DNA of 64,000 nt from an uncultured Gammaproteobacteria bacterium (GCA_964394405.1 CAYMVY010000001.1:345236-409235), one strand, 5' to 3'. Counted from the first letter of the stretch, positions 52,848-56,610 are shown. The notes: generated by a model not told the origin, from the letters alone. A program made the numbers and translations.

Positions 52848-53870
52848 AAGAAGGAAACCAGTGGGACGCTGAAACCCTCGTTCCGAAGAACAGATGAGCA
52901 ATCGTCCCACTGGTCATGAAGGCACTACAACAATCGTTTTTTCAAACAGTCAGTCGTGCGCCTTCTCTCTACTATTTTTTATTACAAAAATCCCAGAGAG
53001 AAGAGGGTGGCTCGACGACACCCACTGAAACGTACCTTGTGGTACAACTGGACCAACGTCGTCGAGCCACTAATTGGAGACACTCGGCTATTCGTCTTTA
53101 CAGACATGGATTGCCTCGTCTCCAAATTGAAAGGGGGAGGGGGTGTGTACATGACGTGTTGCGTCCTAAACAGACAATATTGCCATCGTTCCAAACCCCT
53201 CCCTAAGACACACATTTTAAATATATATCCTAGGGAAGTGACCAGTAGGACACTCGACTACTCGTACCGAAGTACAATAGCTCATTCGTCCTACTGGTCA
53301 TGAAGGCAGGTGGGACATCGTTCTCTCGAACAACAGGTGCAACGCCTTCTCTCTATTATTTTTTATTACAAAAATCTCAGAGAGAAGGGAGTGGCTCGAT
53401 GACATCCGAGTTGTCGTACCTTACGGTACATCGCAACAATCGTCGTCGAGCCACTAATTTGGAGACACCCGTATGCTCGTCTTTGCAGACAGCAGCGGAA
53501 TCGTCTCCAAATTGGAAAGGTAGAGAGGTAGGACAATCCATGCATCGTTTTATTTTAACATTCACCTGTTCGTCCAAACCCCTCCCTAAAATCTCAACAG
53601 AGTGGAAACTTTAGGGAAGTGACCAGTACGACATGGGGCAACTCGTTCCGAAGAACATCCCCAAACTCGTCTTACTGGTCATGAAAGCAAGAAAGCCTAC
53701 GTTCTTTCGAACATACAACCTCTCGCCTTCTCTCTATTATTTTTTTATTACAAAAATCCCAGAGAGAAGGGTGGAAGGAATATACTCGCGCACATTCCTT
53801 CCGGTAGGGACCGCATTTCCATCGTCTTTGTGAGACACATTTCCATTCGTCCCTCATCTATTTATTTTGT
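52848..53870. repeat. tandem array L: three units (about 384, 381 and about 258 bp, the last a terminal variant) of a non-coding five-hairpin structured element
   Basis: Each unit has five hairpins. Hairpin A is GGGAAGTGACCAGTAGGAC-(loop containing CGTTCCGAAGAACA)-GTCCTACTGGTCATGAAGGCA. B is CGCCTTCTCTCT-(ACTATTTTTTATTACAAAAATCCC)-AGAGAGAAGG. C is GTGGCTCGACGAC-(variable about 37 nt)-GTCGTCGAGCCAC. D is TTGGAGAC-(variable about 33 nt)-GTCTCCAA. E is GGGGGAGGGG-(variable)-CCCCTCCCTA. There is no consistent ORF. Confidence 0.8.
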
Positions 53871-55575
53871 ATCAAATAAACAGATGACGTACGAAAATTA
53901 TTGAGAGGTGGAGGGCGAGACAGGTTCGCCCTCCGATTGTACCTCGAGTCAGAATTGGGTTGTGTCCCGATCATCATGCCTGTCAGTTGAGAGAGACACT
54001 TCATGCATCGTCTTTTTAGGACATCGCACACTACGTCTCTCACCACTCATGATGTGTTTGTTACGCCACCTTCTTCTCCTCCGTCGGATTGGACATGCTC
54101 TGCTCGAGCTTGGTCCAGTTCTTCCAGAGCCACTCGATGAACTTCGTGGCCGTGCGCCACGACGCCATCTTGTGGATGTGACCGTCGCCGTAGCGACGGG
54201 TGTGCTTGCTCTCGACTCCCTTGTCGTTGGTGTCGGAAGCTTTGTCCTTGCTCTTCTTGCACTCGTCCCACGGGACTTCGCACGCGCTGCACTGGACGAC
54301 CGGGTGCTTCACCCGGAACTTGACCTTGTACTCGCGGAGCTTTTGGCCCCACTCGGACTTCTCGTTCCGGTTGCACTGGTCGGTGAAGAGGAAGAGCGCC
54401 TGACGTCCGTCCGGATGCCAGTTCGCGATCTCTCCGTGTCGGCGCCTGGCGAACTGCTTGTCGGCCGAGCGGTCACCGAACTTGCCACCCCGGAGCACAT
54501 GGACTCCGAGGAAGGCCTTCAGCTTCTCCTTGGTCTCGAAGCGTCGGATGTCCCCGATCGCGACGATGATTCGAGCCGAGATCATCGGCCCGATGCCGCG
54601 GATGGGCAAGAGGAGCTCGTTGTAGACCGGGAGGTTCGCGAGGATCTTCTCGATCTCCTTGTTGCGCGCCCCCTCTTCCGTGACGAGGGCCTGGATCACA
54701 CGATCGTTCGAGCGTGCCTGCTCGTAGAGAACCTCGATCTCCCCCTCCGGGTACTTGCCTTCCTCGGAGCAGAAGATCTTGCCGATCATGTGTGAGCGGA
54801 GACGCTGTTCGGCGCCGATCCGCGCCTTCATGGCATTCACGCGATTCTGCCACGCCTCGGTGAGGCGAATCAGGTCGCGATCACGCCGCGTCGTCGGCAA
54901 GAAGAGGTGGATGTTGCTCTGCACGAGCTCGGCCAAGGTCTGGTGATCCAGATCCTTCTCCCGCTTGAGTCCTTCCCGACGCGTTTTGAAGACGCCGGGC
55001 TGGATGCGGAAGACCGCGGTGTCGTGCTTCAGCTCATCAGCCTGCCGCGAGAGCGCGAACGCGAGTCGGTCACCCGATCCGCCGAGCATCATCCCGACCA
55101 CGTCGCCAGCCTTGAAGCCGTCGAGCGTTTCCGGAATCTCGAGGATGTGCGGTGTGTTCTTGGTCTTCTCTTCGACCCAGTGGGTCAGAGAGAGTTCGGT
55201 CGCATCCTCGTTCTTCTTCACCTTCCTCCACTTGAGGTGGTGCTTCCGTCGACCGTTCGTGTACTCGTCGACGATCGAGTCGTCGACACCCTTCGTGGCG
55301 AGCCGCCAGGACACCGGGTACTGACCCAGAATCCAGTCGAGCTCGTCAGTCTCGGTCTCGAGCTCGTAGTGACGCTCACGCTTGCCTTCGATGACCGACA
55401 CCAGGGTCGGTCGTGCTTCGCCAGCCGCAGTCGCTTTGACCCGGTGGCGAATTCCGATGTACCTCGTCATTGAGACACTCCTTGATTTCGTCCGGCCTGG
55501 CCGGACAGTGGATGAAGGTGCATGTGTTGAATCGTCTTTTCAGACAGACATGTATTCGCACCTTCCCTCTGGGTA
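53860..55575 (-). mobile_element. G+C-rich element of about 1.7 kb carrying an IS110-family-like recombinase gene, inserted between the two hairpin-unit arrays
   Basis: Sharp rise in G+C and GC3-rich codons compared with the flanking arrays and the rest of the window. It carries a single long ORF on the minus strand. There is about 95 bp of non-coding DNA upstream of the ORF and about 195 bp downstream, which includes the hairpin GGAGGGCGAGACAGGTTCGCCCTCC. Confidence 0.6.
54061..55470 (-). CDS. IS110-family-like transposase/recombinase (DEDD RuvC-like N-domain plus Transposase_20 HhH domain)
   Basis: 469 aa. The C-terminal LPIRGIGPMISARIIVAIGDIRRFETKEKLKAFLGVHVLRGGKFG matches the IS110 Transposase_20 consensus (IPGIGpltAa..aeiGDisRF...laaylGLvP...SG). 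TTRRDRDLIRLTEAW resembles the KTDrrDAraLA motif of the DEDD domain. Overlapping plus-strand ORFs (53908..54795 and others) are high-GC antisense artefacts. Confidence 0.7.
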   Translation of the reverse strand: MTRYIGIRHRVKATAAGEARPTLVSVIEGKRERHYELETETDELDWILGQYPVSWRLATKGVDDSIVDEYTNGRRKHHLKWRKVKKNEDATELSLTHWVEEKTKNTPHILEIPETLDGFKAGDVVGMMLGGSGDRLAFALSRQADELKHDTAVFRIQPGVFKTRREGLKREKDLDHQTLAELVQSNIHLFLPTTRRDRDLIRLTEAWQNRVNAMKARIGAEQRLRSHMIGKIFCSEEGKYPEGEIEVLYEQARSNDRVIQALVTEEGARNKEIEKILANLPVYNELLLPIRGIGPMISARIIVAIGDIRRFETKEKLKAFLGVHVLRGGKFGDRSADKQFARRRHGEIANWHPDGRQALFLFTDQCNRNEKSEWGQKLREYKVKFRVKHPVVQCSACEVPWDECKKSKDKASDTNDKGVESKHTRRYGDGHIHKMASWRTATKFIEWLWKNWTKLEQSMSNPTEEKKVA

Positions 55576-55589
55576 CAAAAGATACACAA

Positions 55590-56610
55590 AGGGAAGGTGA
55601 CCAGTAGGGCGCAACGATAATCGTTCCGAGGAACAACTGCAAAATCGTCCTACTGGTCTTGAAGGCACGCCTTCTTGCATCCTTTCGGATATAGCAACCT
55701 ACGCCTTCTCTCTACTATTTTTTATCTAAAAAATTTCAGAGAGAAGGGGGTGGCTCAACGACAAAGCCCGACACGCACTTTTTAGGTGCATCGGAAGTAT
55801 CGTCGTTGAGCCACTTATTGGAGACATCTGTAGAATCGTCACAAGGACAAACCCCTTCACGTCTCCAAATTAGAAAGAGTAGAGGGAGTCAGACAGAGCC
55901 ACGCCCGTTTTTGACAAACAATGCTACGATCGTCCAGACCCCTCCCTACAATCTCGATAGTATCGGGACTATAGGAAGGAGACCAGCAGGACAATCTACT
56001 ATACTTTCCGAAGAACAACCTTCGCCTCGTCCTACTGGTCTTGAAGGCACGCCTTCTTGCATCCTTTCGGATATAGCAACCTACGCCTTCTCTCTACTAT
56101 TTTTTATCTAAAAAATTTCAGAGAGAAGGGGGTGACTCGACGACATAGCTTCCAACATTCCGAAGAACAGCGCAAAGATCGTCGTCGAGTCACAGATGGA
56201 GACAAAACCAGTACCGTCACAAGGACAGACTCCTACACGTCTCCAAACTAAAAGGGTAGAGGGGTCTAGACATAGCTGTTGTCGCTATTGCTAGACGATT
56301 TGACAATCGTCTAGACCCCTCCCTACGACGCACATCTTAATATGTATCTTAGGGAAGCGACCAGTATGACAGACGTAGCATCGTTCCGAAGAACAGAGGT
56401 ATGTTCATCCTACTGGTCATGAAGGCACCACAACAATCGTTCTTCCGAACATTAATTCGAGCGCCTTCTCTCTATGTTGTTTCACGAACAATACAGGGAG
56501 AAGGGTAGAAGGCGTATGCATTATCGCATTCACGCCTTCTAGAGAGGGGACAGGAGGACTCTCGTTCTATGGAACATCGGCTCAGTCGTCCCTCATAGGG
56601 GTGCTCTTAA
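55590..56610. repeat. tandem array R: three further units (about 383, 377 and about 260 bp, the last a terminal variant) of the same five-hairpin structured element
   Basis: Units start at about 55590, 55973 and 56350. Units 4 and 5 share an identical segment of about 107 nt (55641-55751 = 56031-56141). The C-stem shows compensatory changes (GTGGCTCAACGAC/GTCGTTGAGCCAC and GTGACTCGACGAC/GTCGTCGAGTCAC). The terminal unit ends with a distinct hairpin GTAGAAGGCGTATGCATTATCGCATTCACGCCTTCTAG and the motif TCGTCCCTCAT, as does the terminal unit of array L. Confidence 0.8.

Follow-up and report, generated by a model that had tools for sequence, protein, structure and literature searches.

Genes and features of the locus

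The window, which is the whole stretch of 64,000 nucleotides analysed, carries on its minus strand the gene tasR (54061..55470), flanked by two arrays of hairpin modules: array 2 upstream (55514..56594) and array 1 downstream (52856..54041). The gene is preceded by the RBS AAGGAG (55478-55483, minus strand) and encodes a TIGR-associated protein of 469 aa with a RuvC-like N-terminal domain, predicted to be inactive, and a Nop domain. An initial annotation had described six consecutive units of about 380 bp, and these were recovered at about 381 bp each, three on each side of a G+C-rich segment (start-to-start spacing of 384, 381, 1978, 382 and 378 bp). This segment is indeed G+C-rich (54-61% versus about 42% in the window), but it is not foreign DNA splitting the arrays, as the term insert had implied. 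It is the effector gene tasR, encoding the system's own protein, which would bind these RNAs. The locus adjoins tRNA genes and has a housekeeping chromosomal context (tRNAs, rnc, nusB and rsmA).

The predicted transcribed strand is the minus strand, which had been missed. On this strand the two arrays fold more stably, at -0.425 and -0.408 kcal/nt compared with -0.365 and -0.369 for the opposite one. It also gives the inner loop as cUUCGg, and CUU is found at the base of the linker hairpins. In other loci, CUU is enriched 3' of the stems (43% versus 26%). The locus would form a single minus-strand transcription unit that starts near position 56640 and stops at the 52812 terminator, comprising the 14-module upstream array, tasR and the 14-module downstream array. 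Its predicted 5' limit is the intrinsic terminator of the upstream tRNA-Lys and tRNA-Arg genes (56642..56658, minus strand). No sigma-70-type promoter was recognised in the leader upstream of array 2 (56595-56640, minus strand). After the last module of array 1 comes a bidirectional intrinsic terminator (52812..52838), whose 12-bp stem has a T run behind it on either strand. It is predicted to end both the minus-strand array transcript and a DUF1653 gene on the plus strand. Between module Q and the rest of array 1, a GC-rich hairpin (GGAGGGCGA...UCGCCCUCC; 53910..53934, minus strand) may serve in weak internal termination or in processing.

Misassembly had been raised as a concern. A 1963-bp sequence in the independent Logan assembly SRR12404947 matches positions 53712-55674 exactly, so the centre of the locus is no assembly artefact; that assembly breaks inside the repeats.

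Guide modules and non-guide hairpins

Manual parsing yielded 28 modules, with P and Q adjoining the gene and one extra module (T1) in each terminal unit. All 28 have the minus-strand form stem-CGN-9 nt-UG-small hairpin-CGN-9 nt-UG-stem. Each module is a putative tigRNA precursor, in which an outer stem of variable sequence closes an internal loop; in this loop, each 9-nt spacer has a box C (CGA/CGN) before it and a box D (UG) after it, with a small hairpin, often cUUCGg, between both spacers. The length is 9 nt in all 56 spacers (9+9 per module). Of the 56 C and C' boxes, 36 read CGA, and of the 56 D and D' boxes, 50 read UG. The loops had been described as hypervariable, which holds for their variability but not for a free form: each consists of two 9-nt variable segments around a small conserved hairpin, and this two-spacer anatomy had escaped notice. 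Modules were scored with R1, a covariance model built only from tas-locus modules of other genomes, with none from the window.

Array 2 (all modules on the minus strand) starts with T1b (56544..56594; GAGGGA CGA CUGAGCCGA UG UUCCAUAGAA CGA GAGUCCUCC UG UCCCCUC; R1 31.0 bits, E=1e-6). This is followed by B6 (56421..56468; spacers UCGAAUUAA and UUGUUGUGG; 22.0 bits), A6 (56359..56418; ACAUACCUC and UGCUACGUC; box C is UGA; 29.8 bits), E5 (56259..56323; UUGUCAAAU and CAACAGCUA; 29.1 bits), D5 (56196..56247; GUAGGAGUC and UACUGGUUU; boxes CGU/CGG; outside R1 at E<=1) and C5 (56132..56193; UCUUUGCGC and UGGAAGCUA; 28.8 bits). In B5 (56043..56090; AGGUUGCUA and AAGAAGGCG; no R1 match), the box D'/C' pair has changed from G:C to A:U (UA...UGC). 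The array continues with A5 (55981..56040; GGCGAAGGU and AUAGUAGAU; box C' degenerate, AGU; 24.9 bits), E4 (55882..55946; UCGUAGCAU and GCGUGGCUC; 18.4 bits), D4 (55818..55869; GAAGGGGUU and UUCUACAGA; 19.8 bits), C4 (55750..55814; UACUUCCGA and GUCGGGCUU; 17.5 bits), B4 (55661..55708; identical to B5) and A4 (55599..55658; UUUUGCAGU and UUAUCGUUG; 30.2 bits), and ends with P (55514..55565; 31.4 bits), which adjoins tasR.

Array 1, on the same strand, begins 20 nt 3' of the tas stop with Q (53991..54041; AGUGUGCGA and UGCAUGAAG; 32.2 bits). Then come T1a (53804..53855; AUGGAAAUG and UGGAAAUGC; box D is GG; 18.1 bits), B3 (53683..53730; GAGGUUGUA and AGGCUUUCU; mutated 3' arm; 16.9 bits), A3 (53621..53680; GUUUGGGGA and GUUGCCCCA; 38.9 bits), E2 (53523..53586; ACAGGUGAA and UGCAUGGAU; 21.4 bits), D2 (53459..53511; UUCCGCUGC and GCAUACGGG; 48.2 bits, E=7.5e-12), C2 (53391..53454; UUGUUGCGA and CAACUCGGA; 26.7 bits), B2 (53302..53349; UGCACCUGU and UGUCCCACC; 18.8 bits) and A2 (53240..53299; AUGAGCUAU and GUAGUCGAG; 42.7 bits). 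The last five are E1 (53135..53203; UGGCAAUAU and AACACGUCA; no R1 match), D1 (53074..53126; GGCAAUCCA and AUAGCCGAG; 42.8 bits), C1 (53007..53070; UGGUCCAGU and UUCAGUGGG; boxes CGU; 12.4 bits, E=0.37), B1 (52918..52965; ACGACUGAC and UUGUUGUAG; 22.4 bits) and A1 (52856..52915; UUGCUCAUC and GGGUUUCAG; 41.2 bits).

Five hairpins per unit had been reported; a full unit contains the five guide hairpins A-E and, in addition, two non-guide hairpins, X and F. X1 (52961..53003, minus strand; CUUCUCUCU...AGAGAGAAGG) has a conserved inner A/U-rich hairpin, and further minus-strand copies of X lie at 53345-53387, 53726-53769, 55704-55746, 56086-56128 and 56464-56503. The 3' arm of X overlaps the 5' arm of the next B module. 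The TTGTT/AACAA pair of unit 6 is present, but it belongs to the separate hairpin X and not to a nested loop of B. Hairpin F (53198..53238, minus strand; CUUCCCUA...UAGGGAGG) has a variable yet paired interior, recurs on the minus strand at 53581-53619, 55562-55596, 55941-55978 and 56318-56357, and overlaps with its 3' arm the 5' arm of the next E or P module. Both X and F begin with CUUC, and such non-guide hairpins are not described in the available text of the two TIGR papers cited below. The first (leader-proximal) unit of array 1 also contains a plain hairpin, T2a (53773..53802), with T2b as its counterpart (56506-56541), both on the minus strand.

Conservation of structure and variability of the spacers

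With R1, 23 modules of the window were detected at E<0.02 (7.5e-12 to 0.017); every one reads on the minus strand and falls between 52859 and 56596. The only other match in the 64 kb at E<0.05 is an echo of A1 on the plus strand (E=0.038). The remaining five of the 28 (D5, B4, B5, E1 and C1) are missed or weakly scored, and some of these, with degenerate boxes, may be non-functional. The same model gave 522 matches in 80 tas loci of Candidate Phyla Radiation (CPR) bacteria, lying on the tas strand in 299 of 300 among the matches listed. In other CPR genomes, hairpin modules of the same anatomy flank tas homologues of 37-67% identity and share their strand.

The compensatory stem changes noted earlier are present, the C-stem of unit 4 being GTGGCTCAACGA/TCGTTGAGCCAC and that of unit 5 GTGACTCGACGA/TCGTCGAGTCAC, and so are the A-stem pair GGGACG/CGTCCC in unit 1, the CGTTCCGAAGAACA motif and the terminal motif TCGTCCCTCAT. 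Units 4 and 5 are exactly identical over 108 nt (55645-55752 and 56027-56134), a stretch estimated earlier at about 107 nt. A covariation check on 95 modules showed that the base pairs covary across seven loci. In this alignment, which was fitted to the model and is therefore biased in favour of the structure, 96.1% of cells are paired versus 68.6% when shuffled and 29-51% with slid partners, and 354 cells show both-sided changes versus 96 in shuffles. Between copies of the same module, identity is 91% and 80% in the stems and 30% and 27% in the spacers, the latter being at the random level (25.6%). A second comparison, which included the linkers, gave 82-91% for stems, 64-79% for linkers and 29-32% for spacers. 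The earlier proposal was right that these are functional structured RNAs in which base pairing is selected and some segments vary deliberately; its alternative of structure-recognised ssDNA sites has found no support.

It has been considered that the arrays are a decaying, functionless tandem satellite, in which hairpins persist since palindromes duplicate together, but despite the tandem organisation, the 108-nt identity suggestive of recent duplication or gene conversion and the degenerate boxes, this is effectively refuted, with hardly any probability left, by the strong partitioning of divergence among stems, linkers and spacers, the fixed length of all 56 spacers, the covariation across seven loci and the same anatomy beside tas in 80 other genomes.

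The TasR protein

TasR scores 134.9 bits against the NCBIfam model NF052498 (TIGR_Tas_endo; cut-off 100), and the sole phmmer match in the PDB is 9mty_A, TaTasR (1.8e-8). The AF2 model (pLDDT 91.6) has TaTasR (9mty) as its best fold match (5e-11), followed by IS621 and then TasH; the match to Nop5 is not significant (E about 1). The closest relatives found are 64-67% identical and Magasanikbacteria-like, and the homologues share the consensus start MxRxIGIRHRVK. Its gene is about 61% G+C, compared with 42% for the genome. The tas gene is consistently G+C-richer than its host genome, an observation not found in the available text of the two TIGR papers.

The catalytic positions of the RuvC domain are occupied by R8, in place of the Asp at the end of beta-1, and L129, in place of Glu. 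Across 45 homologues, D is absent from position 8, where R, Q, K or E is found, and L129 is invariant. In CsTasR, the equivalent positions are reported as R8 and V126, and this protein lacks cleavage and represses transcription (Xu et al. 2026). The RuvC domain of TasR is therefore predicted to be inactive, as judged from its motif positions and one published relative, and its function is likely to be RNA-guided DNA binding and repression, not cleavage.

Identity of the locus and proposed mechanism

The hairpin units are a stem-loop TIGR (Tandem Interspaced Guide RNA) array of the clade found in CPR bacteria. The RNA family had been regarded as unknown, which is outdated: TIGR-Tas systems, which use RNA guides to target DNA, were first described in 2025, and stem-loop TIGR arrays appear in Faure et al. 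2025 (PMC12045711, section 9) and in the catalogue of Xu et al. 2026 (bioRxiv 10.64898/2026.09.09.750476). A search of Rfam found no family for it, with no match at gathering level and only a sub-threshold match to ncr1175. As described in these papers, a hairpin separates the spacers and arrays flank tas on both sides, which is the anatomy observed here and supports the TIGR identity. The protein family and fold, the module anatomy, the strand, the covariation, the spacer-specific hypervariability and the association with tas in other genomes also support it. It is highly probable that the locus as a whole is a stem-loop TIGR-Tas system of the CPR (Patescibacteria) TasR clade, most likely acting in RNA-guided DNA binding and repression.

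By analogy with published relatives, single-hairpin tigRNAs would be released from the primary transcript by cuts near CUU motifs at the base of the stems. Each tigRNA would be bound through both of its box C/D pairs by a dimer of TasR, and its two spacers would pair with an 18-bp DNA site, one on each strand. As the catalytic positions are replaced as in CsTasR, the DNA-bound complex would most likely block transcription rather than cut. A search of the 64-kb window for natural targets found none, with bipartite 18-mer matches at or below chance in either geometry.

Comparison with known systems and alternative explanations

The closest counterpart is the CPR TasR clade, for example CsTasR of Candidatus Staskawiczbacteria. 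Both have an expanded RuvC-like domain without the first two catalytic residues, with R8, and lack a long C-terminal loop past the last helix. The loci share same-strand arrays upstream as well as downstream of tas, sequence-variable yet palindromic outer stems, two spacers between box C and box D separated by a 4-5-bp hairpin, CUU near the stem bases, and a chromosomal context in a CPR bacterium. They differ in protein size (469 aa versus 547 aa for CsTasR), in spacer length (exactly 9 nt here versus 10 nt, of which 9 pair, in CsTasR) and in module number (28 here versus a catalogue average of about 7, from 17,756 tigRNAs in 2,559 arrays).

The dual-repeat TIGR-Tas systems (TaTasR, PDB 9MTY; SpTasH, PDB 9W04) have in common with this locus the Nop domain, the RuvC fold, the DGHxH motif, dual 9-nt spacers, the UG box D and the pairing of the box C cytosine with the box D guanine. 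In contrast, this locus has long variable stems and an inner hairpin instead of conserved edge and loop repeats in a 36-nt unit, and its box C is CGA and not CCA; TasR lacks the Y/H processing loop, and its RuvC is predicted to be inactive. The same TIGR-TasR system could act as an active RNA-guided nuclease that cuts phage or mobile-element DNA through non-canonical RuvC-like acidic residues. The NCBIfam name (RNA-guided endonuclease), the invariant or nearly invariant D123, D134 and D175, and the DNA cleavage described for dual-repeat TasR and TasH in Faure 2025 speak for this. However, the substitutions at both catalytic positions in all 45 homologues, and the absence of in vitro cleavage and the reversible repression reported for CsTasR with an equal substitution pattern, make such a nuclease improbable, although it fares best among the alternatives.

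Box C/D sRNAs and snoRNAs (Nop5, Nop56/58) share with this locus the order C-guide-D'-C'-guide-D, a Nop-domain protein with an inactive RuvC-like N-terminal domain, and clustered RNAs processed from a polycistron, as predicted here. The dead-RuvC TasR might thus be a bacterial snoRNP analogue, with 9-nt guides binding RNA such as rRNA or tRNA instead of DNA, and possibly recruiting a modifying enzyme. The housekeeping context fits this, as does the suggestion of Faure et al. that the dead-RuvC clade of CPR bacteria may represent a stage on the way to box C/D snoRNPs. It is nevertheless very unlikely: the locus lacks the RUGAUGA/CUGA K-turn consensus, a fibrillarin or other methyltransferase gene and an L7Ae-like gene, snoRNA families all score below threshold, and its characterised relatives target DNA, with CsTasR reported as solved on dsDNA and repressing transcription in vivo.

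IS110/IS1111 recombinases (IS621, PDB 8WT6/8WT9) are homologous to TasR in the Transposase_20 region (fold matches 1e-7), and their bridge RNA likewise has stem-closed internal loops with guide segments on both sides. An IS110-family insertion sequence with flanking bridge RNA could have inserted into hairpin repeats that were already there, as a satellite or REP-like array, and that are merely its insertion target. This would agree with the Pfam Transposase_20 match, weak matches to IS110 NCBIfam models, IS621 as second-best fold match, the G+C contrast between gene and genome and the neighbouring tRNA genes. Yet TasR is far under the family cut-offs (43 bits versus 140 for the IS110 equivalog) and lacks the catalytic acidic (DEDD) residues, there are many independent single-loop guides instead of one two-loop bridge RNA, and mobility evidence is absent at this locus, with no second copy of the tasR segment in the 64-kb window. 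The two are not halves of one interrupted array, since a separate leader and separate terminal modules belong to each. The recurrence of box C/D dual-spacer modules beside tas in other CPR genomes is unexpected for a random insertion target. This origin has a very slight probability, below that of a snoRNP analogue.

CRISPR arrays also alternate conserved and hypervariable segments beside an effector gene and are transcribed and cut into guides, as predicted here. The earlier statement that this is no CRISPR array was correct: a single direct repeat is lacking, every unit carries a pair of 9-nt spacers, structure and not sequence is the conserved feature, cas1 and cas2 are absent, and PADLOC gave no match at the locus.

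As a stem-loop TIGR-Tas system, the locus adds some minor points that are apparently undescribed in the available text of the two TIGR papers. Besides the G+C-richness of tas, these are a five-guide cassette that repeats, unlike in the CPR TasR loci described there, and the non-guide CUUC hairpins X and F, which go unmentioned there for CPR TasR systems.

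A stem-loop TIGR-Tas locus with two guide arrays

The tandem units belong to a stem-loop TIGR-Tas system of the TasR type, which is encoded on the minus strand and comprises array 2 (55514-56594), the tasR gene (54061-55470) and array 1 (52856-54041). A Nop-type protein, a RuvC-like domain, dual-spacer units, covarying stems, arrays adjacent to the tas gene and a terminator are all present. TIGR-Tas systems are already known (published in 2025), and a 2026 preprint describes both structural and functional work on the stem-loop clade of the CPR (Patescibacteria). In the initial annotation, the units were taken for an unrecognised RNA family and the segment between the arrays for a G+C-rich insert; the former is an element of this described system, and the latter is its protein gene. 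The tasR open reading frame has 469 codons and is preceded by an AAGGAG ribosome-binding site 8 nt upstream, and its product matches the NCBIfam family NF052498 (TIGR_Tas_endo, 'TIGR-Tas system RNA-guided endonuclease') with 134.9 bits (cut-off 100) over residues 207-452. Other parts of the earlier description hold: the central segment has a G+C content of 54-61% compared with about 42% for the window, the sequence details quoted there are all present, and six units of about 381 bp lie three on each side of this segment, with start-to-start distances of 384, 381, 1978, 382 and 378 bp. With regard to misassembly, a Logan contig from SRR12404947 (1963 bp) is identical to positions 53712-55674 and ends within repeats on both sides, so the centre of the locus is no assembly artefact; the unit count is that of the source assembly alone. 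On the plus strand, ATG-initiated reading frames occupy the same relative position in unit 1 (52916-53206, 96 codons) and unit 2 (53300-53614, 104 codons) and are absent from units 3-6, where the ATG is lacking; they look like by-products of the repeats, not genes.

The guide hairpins, read on the minus strand, follow one plan: an outer stem arm, CGA or CGN (box C), a spacer of 9 nt, UG (box D), a small hairpin of 9-13 nt, a second CGA or CGN, a second 9-nt spacer, UG and the closing stem arm. Twenty-eight such modules were parsed by hand, 14 on each side of tas and all on the tas strand. They are named by hairpin type (A-E) and unit (1-6), with P and Q adjoining tas and T1a and T1b in the terminal units. 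In order along the minus strand, the upstream modules are T1b, B6, A6, E5, D5, C5, B5, A5, E4, D4, C4, B4, A4 and P, and the downstream modules are Q, T1a, B3, A3, E2, D2, C2, B2, A2, E1, D1, C1, B1 and A1. The spacer is exactly 9 nt long in 56/56 cases and is followed by UG in 50/56, and it is preceded by CGA in 36/56 and by CGN in 51/56. The pair between the box C cytosine and the box D guanine is kept at 91/94 outer and 91/94 inner positions, and in B4 and B5 the inner C:G box pair is altered on both sides to A:U (UA...UGC).

The criterion applied for a stem-loop TIGR unit was two spacers of 8-12 nt per tandem unit, each with box C on its 5' side and box D on its 3' side, and the anatomy of the 28 modules agrees with the unit definition in the 2025 publication (PMC12045711). 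According to the preprint on the CPR clade (Xu et al. 2026, bioRxiv 10.64898/2026.09.09.750476), the loop between the spacers is a hairpin there (with a 5-bp stem in CsTasR, a characterised relative) and tigRNAs lie on both sides of tas; the same arrangement is seen here. Within the tas coding sequence, no guide module was found by a search with R1, a covariance model built from the modules of other genomes, and two regular-expression matches at 55353-55413 have no stems. Complementarity between the two spacers of a module was also considered and is at chance level (permutation p = 0.36 in the window and 0.35 in other loci).

The TasR protein and its likely mode of action

The sole match of TasR among PDB sequences is 9mty_A (phmmer, 1.8e-8), the TasR of the original TIGR-Tas paper, while Pfam recognises solely the helix-hairpin-helix region of Transposase_20 and the PADLOC defence models give no match for the protein. 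An AlphaFold2 model built on 45 homologues has a pLDDT of 91.6 and a pTM of 0.86. In a Foldseek search with this model, 9mty_B and 9mty_A rank first (5e-11), followed by the IS621 bridge-RNA recombinase and then TasH, and the archaeal Nop5 gives no significant structural match. Fold alignments of TasR to 9mty and IS621 cover 379-465 columns. In the model, residues 4-156 form an N-terminal RuvC-like domain with the strand order of RNase H, an insertion of about 65 residues precedes the strand at 124-128, and no long loop follows the last helix. An insertion of this type and the absence of the long C-terminal loop are both reported for the stem-loop CPR clade.

The catalytic positions of TasR are occupied by R8 and L129. 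Position 8 closes the first beta strand and is the site of the first catalytic Asp in RuvC/DEDD enzymes, and among the 45 homologues it is Arg in 31, Gln in seven, Lys in one and Glu in one, and never Asp; the position of the catalytic Glu is an invariant Leu. The RuvC-like domain of TasR is therefore predicted to be inactive, and an active nuclease, although possible, is disfavoured by these substitutions. In the preprint, CsTasR has R8 and V126 at the catalytic positions and shows no cleavage in vitro, its cryo-EM structure on double-stranded DNA has 9 nt paired per spacer, and it causes guide-dependent, reversible repression of transcription (Xu et al. 2026). Because TasR of the window shares such substitutions at the catalytic positions with CsTasR and carries the model features of the clade, it is probably an RNA-guided DNA-binding protein and a repressor with up to 28 different guides.

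A second role, in which TasR would act on RNA in the manner of a snoRNP, has been raised for the CPR TasR clade in the literature, but sits poorly with CsTasR, whose structure was solved on DNA and which represses transcription. Box C/D sRNAs have the K-turn boxes RUGAUGA and CUGA, whereas the modules in the window have CGA and UG instead. In addition, no snoRNA family of Rfam is present at gathering score, and the sole match of snoRNA type is SCARNA15, on the wrong strand and with 24.9 bits against a threshold of 65.

Targets of such a DNA-binding TasR were searched for with 18-mers from each spacer pair in two geometries, rc(A)+B and B+rc(A), allowing up to four mismatches. Within the 64-kb window, the 18-mer match counts equal those of mismatched-partner controls in both geometries. 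Against large sequence collections, chance matches of 18-mers are expected, and many false positives in TIGR target searches are reported in the preprint (Xu et al. 2026).

Homologous loci in other Patescibacteria

Hundreds of relatives of TasR are found, and every assembly among them that has a name belongs to the CPR/Patescibacteria. Six homologous loci, whose proteins are 47-65% identical to TasR of the window, were fetched; a strict pattern matches 3-17 modules in each, always on the tas strand. R1 was built from eleven of these modules, with none from the window. With all filters off, its matches to the window at E < 0.02 (best 7.5e-12) number 23 modules, all on the minus strand and within 52859-56596; in the rest of the 64 kb there is nothing at E < 0.05 except a plus-strand echo of the palindromic module A1 (E = 0.038). 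A scan of species-representative genomes gave 171 genomes with TasR relatives, from which 80 loci were kept. R1 has 522 matches at E <= 0.01 in these loci, and among the 300 matches listed, 299 are on the tas strand. The context of the tas locus is syntenic-like across many CPR genomes.

These data also bear on the possibility that the locus is an IS110 element inserted in a satellite. Against this explanation, TasR scores far below the NCBIfam cut-offs for IS110 (NF033542, 43.2 against 140; NF051857, 18.1 against 180) and lacks the catalytic residues, with no Asp at position 8 in any homologue and an invariant L129. Nor does it account for the presence of these modules beside distantly related tas genes, on their strand. 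An IS110 element would be mobile, with defined ends and several copies, and would have one bridge RNA with target and donor loops, whereas the locus has 28 independent single-loop modules in two arrays. A second copy of the segment with the tas gene is not found in the window.

In a Parcubacteria locus (L006), about 30 modules lie at 2200-7000, with stem types recurring at periods of 230-300 nt, and two of these modules (3178-3231 and 3477-3530) are identical including their spacers, a sign of duplication that B4 and B5 in the window also show. In the locus of the closest named relative, a Magasanikbacteria MAG (L002), a guide module at 3988-4044 overlaps the annotated tas start (4001). This overlap may be an intragenic or overlapping tigRNA of the kind described by Xu et al. 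or, alternatively, the result of a mis-called start codon.

The tas gene is rich in G+C, with 61.5% compared with 42.5% for the host and a GC3 of 85% compared with 32-38% in neighbouring genes. This is also observed elsewhere: tas is richer in G+C than its outer flanks in 55 of 56 other loci (56 of L008-L087), by a mean of 10 points (Wilcoxon p = 8e-11). The excess sits at synonymous sites. Avoidance of the processing site CUU was rejected as a cause of the G+C-rich codons, with 13 CUU observed against 8.0 +/- 1.7 after synonymous-codon shuffling; recurrent transfer and selection at the mRNA level are possibilities.

Covariation, divergence and possible array growth

Covariation was assessed with 95 modules from seven loci. 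Fitting the alignment to the model biases the result towards the structure, but the controls are exceeded by a wide margin: standard pairs occupy 96.1% of cells, compared with 68.6% in column shuffles and 29-51% with slid partners. Cells changed on both sides number 354 against 96 in the shuffles, and double changes are seen in 11/13 pairs. The examples of compensatory stem changes in the initial annotation are genuine, and the hairpin structure is under selection.

Divergence is partitioned within the modules. Between copies of the same module in the window, stem arms are 91% and 80% identical and spacers 30% and 27%, with 25.6% expected at random. When units are compared with each other, identity is 82-91% in the stems, 64-79% in the linkers and 29-32% in the spacers. 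All spacer pairs but one are at random-level divergence, whereas stems and linkers remain 64-91% identical. The loops previously described as hypervariable are thus precisely the guide segments. This partitioning and the covariation exclude a functionless satellite. The earlier statement that the region is not a CRISPR array also stands: CRISPR arrays have one direct repeat of 25-40 nt, single spacers of similar length and nearby cas genes, whereas the repeat families here recur at 378-384 nt with heterogeneous stems; TRF finds no short-period array at the locus, and PADLOC has no match for the protein.

Five stem types follow one another in the order E-D-C-B-A as a cassette that recurs along the arrays, and the linkers measure 2-4, 8-12, 33-36 and 41 nt. 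Higher-order periods are also found elsewhere, namely 230-300 nt in L006 and 240-290 nt in L005, another homologous locus. An exact stretch is shared by units 4 and 5 (55645-55752 = 56027-56134), as noted before, with a length of 108 nt and not about 107 nt. A rather unlikely reading is that this unusually large and regular locus records the growth of stem-loop TIGR arrays and the exchange of their guides. Growth would then have proceeded by duplication, within each array, of a cassette of five guide hairpins together with X and F, two non-guide hairpins in the long linkers, at least once recently as judged from the exact 108-nt stretch, and a dedicated mechanism would replace or hypermutate the spacers while leaving the stems intact. 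Related strains with the same stems and other spacers were not found in two metagenome scans (with an A-module pattern and with an X-hairpin pattern).

Strand, transcription unit and linker hairpins

The arrays are assigned to the minus strand on four grounds. The folding energy is -0.425 and -0.408 kcal/nt for the two arrays on the minus strand, compared with -0.365 and -0.369 on the plus strand; on the minus strand, the inner loop seen most often is cUUCGg; the box order, with UG placed after every spacer as in all characterised tigRNAs, occurs on the minus strand only; and the modules of homologous loci lie on the tas strand. Counts of G:U and A:C in the stems (13 vs 7) favour the minus strand weakly. 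A relaxed regular expression (box C = CNN) was left out of the orientation evidence because it also matches the opposite strand of palindromic modules (422 vs 198).

The array ends at an intrinsic terminator on the minus strand (52838-52812), with a 12-bp stem and a T run, 17 nt past module A1. Upstream of the locus, the tRNA-Lys/tRNA-Arg genes end at their own intrinsic terminator on the same strand (56658-56642), and the TIGR transcription unit therefore probably begins within the 45-nt leader at 56595-56640. A scan for sigma-70-type promoters found none in the leaders, X or F. Rfam has no match at gathering level in the array region, and a relaxed search gives only ncr1175 (RF02450, a Bacillus sRNA), which at 46.1 bits (E = 3e-6) stays below its gathering score of 60. 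This match covers module A1 and the terminator (52808-52916, minus strand), differs in the box letters and looks like a generic resemblance between long hairpins followed by terminators.

The long linkers consist of the hairpins X and F, both read on the minus strand. X has six copies with a conserved loop (52961-53003, 53345-53387, 53726-53769, 55704-55746, 56086-56128 and 56464-56503), and F has five copies with a variable but paired interior (53198-53238, 53581-53619, 55562-55596, 55941-55978 and 56318-56357), which contains G:U pairs on this strand. Every copy starts with CUUC and folds into a duplex of 15-19 bp. The 3' arm of each shares sequence with the 5' arm of the guide stem that follows (B, E or P), so that the two pairings are mutually exclusive. 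X and F may serve to process or insulate the precursor, for example as substrates of an RNase III-type enzyme. Among the guide modules, types A, C and E have CUU 0-6 nt beyond their 3' end and type B has it within its 3' arm, whereas none follows D; in 271 modules of other loci, CUU is found at -2 to +10 nt relative to the 3' end of the stem in 43%, compared with 26% upstream. [quoted passage not shown] The available text of the two TIGR papers mentions neither the five-stem cassette, the non-guide hairpins X and F, their possible role and the turnover of spacers, nor a family-wide G+C excess of tas over the host.

Genomic neighbourhood and significance

Automatic annotation would name the tas gene, for which an NCBIfam model exists, and would miss the array, which lacks an Rfam family. 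Reading the sequence alone had recovered the hallmarks of stem-loop tigRNAs, namely conserved pairing, variable guides and terminal modules, which makes the locus a useful positive control. With 28 guides, a regular five-stem cassette and a chromosomal housekeeping context in a CPR bacterium, it is a large and clean natural example, and it suits three open questions named in the literature: the origin of the spacers, the processing of stem-loop precursors and the natural targets.

The surroundings contain tRNA-Arg(TCG), tRNA-Lys(CTT), RNase III, NusB-like and L32-like reading frames and, 13 kb from the TIGR locus, an RNase P RNA (56705-56904 and 57055-58556 on the minus strand and 39539-39973 on the plus strand). 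No phage or integrase genes adjoin the locus. The RNase III gene and the array are 450 bp apart, perhaps by coincidence. A second local G+C peak (52%) at 40998-42017 on the minus strand corresponds to a 339-aa reading frame that reads like a sigma-70-family factor, and weak, non-significant matches of the tigRNA model lie near it (41708-41753, E = 0.47). Short tandem repeats of AAACTCA / AAACTCAAAAC are present at 13614-13737 and 42448-42565; at 42.45-42.57 kb, beside a tRNA-Leu gene, heptamer runs of opposite orientation form an inverted pair.
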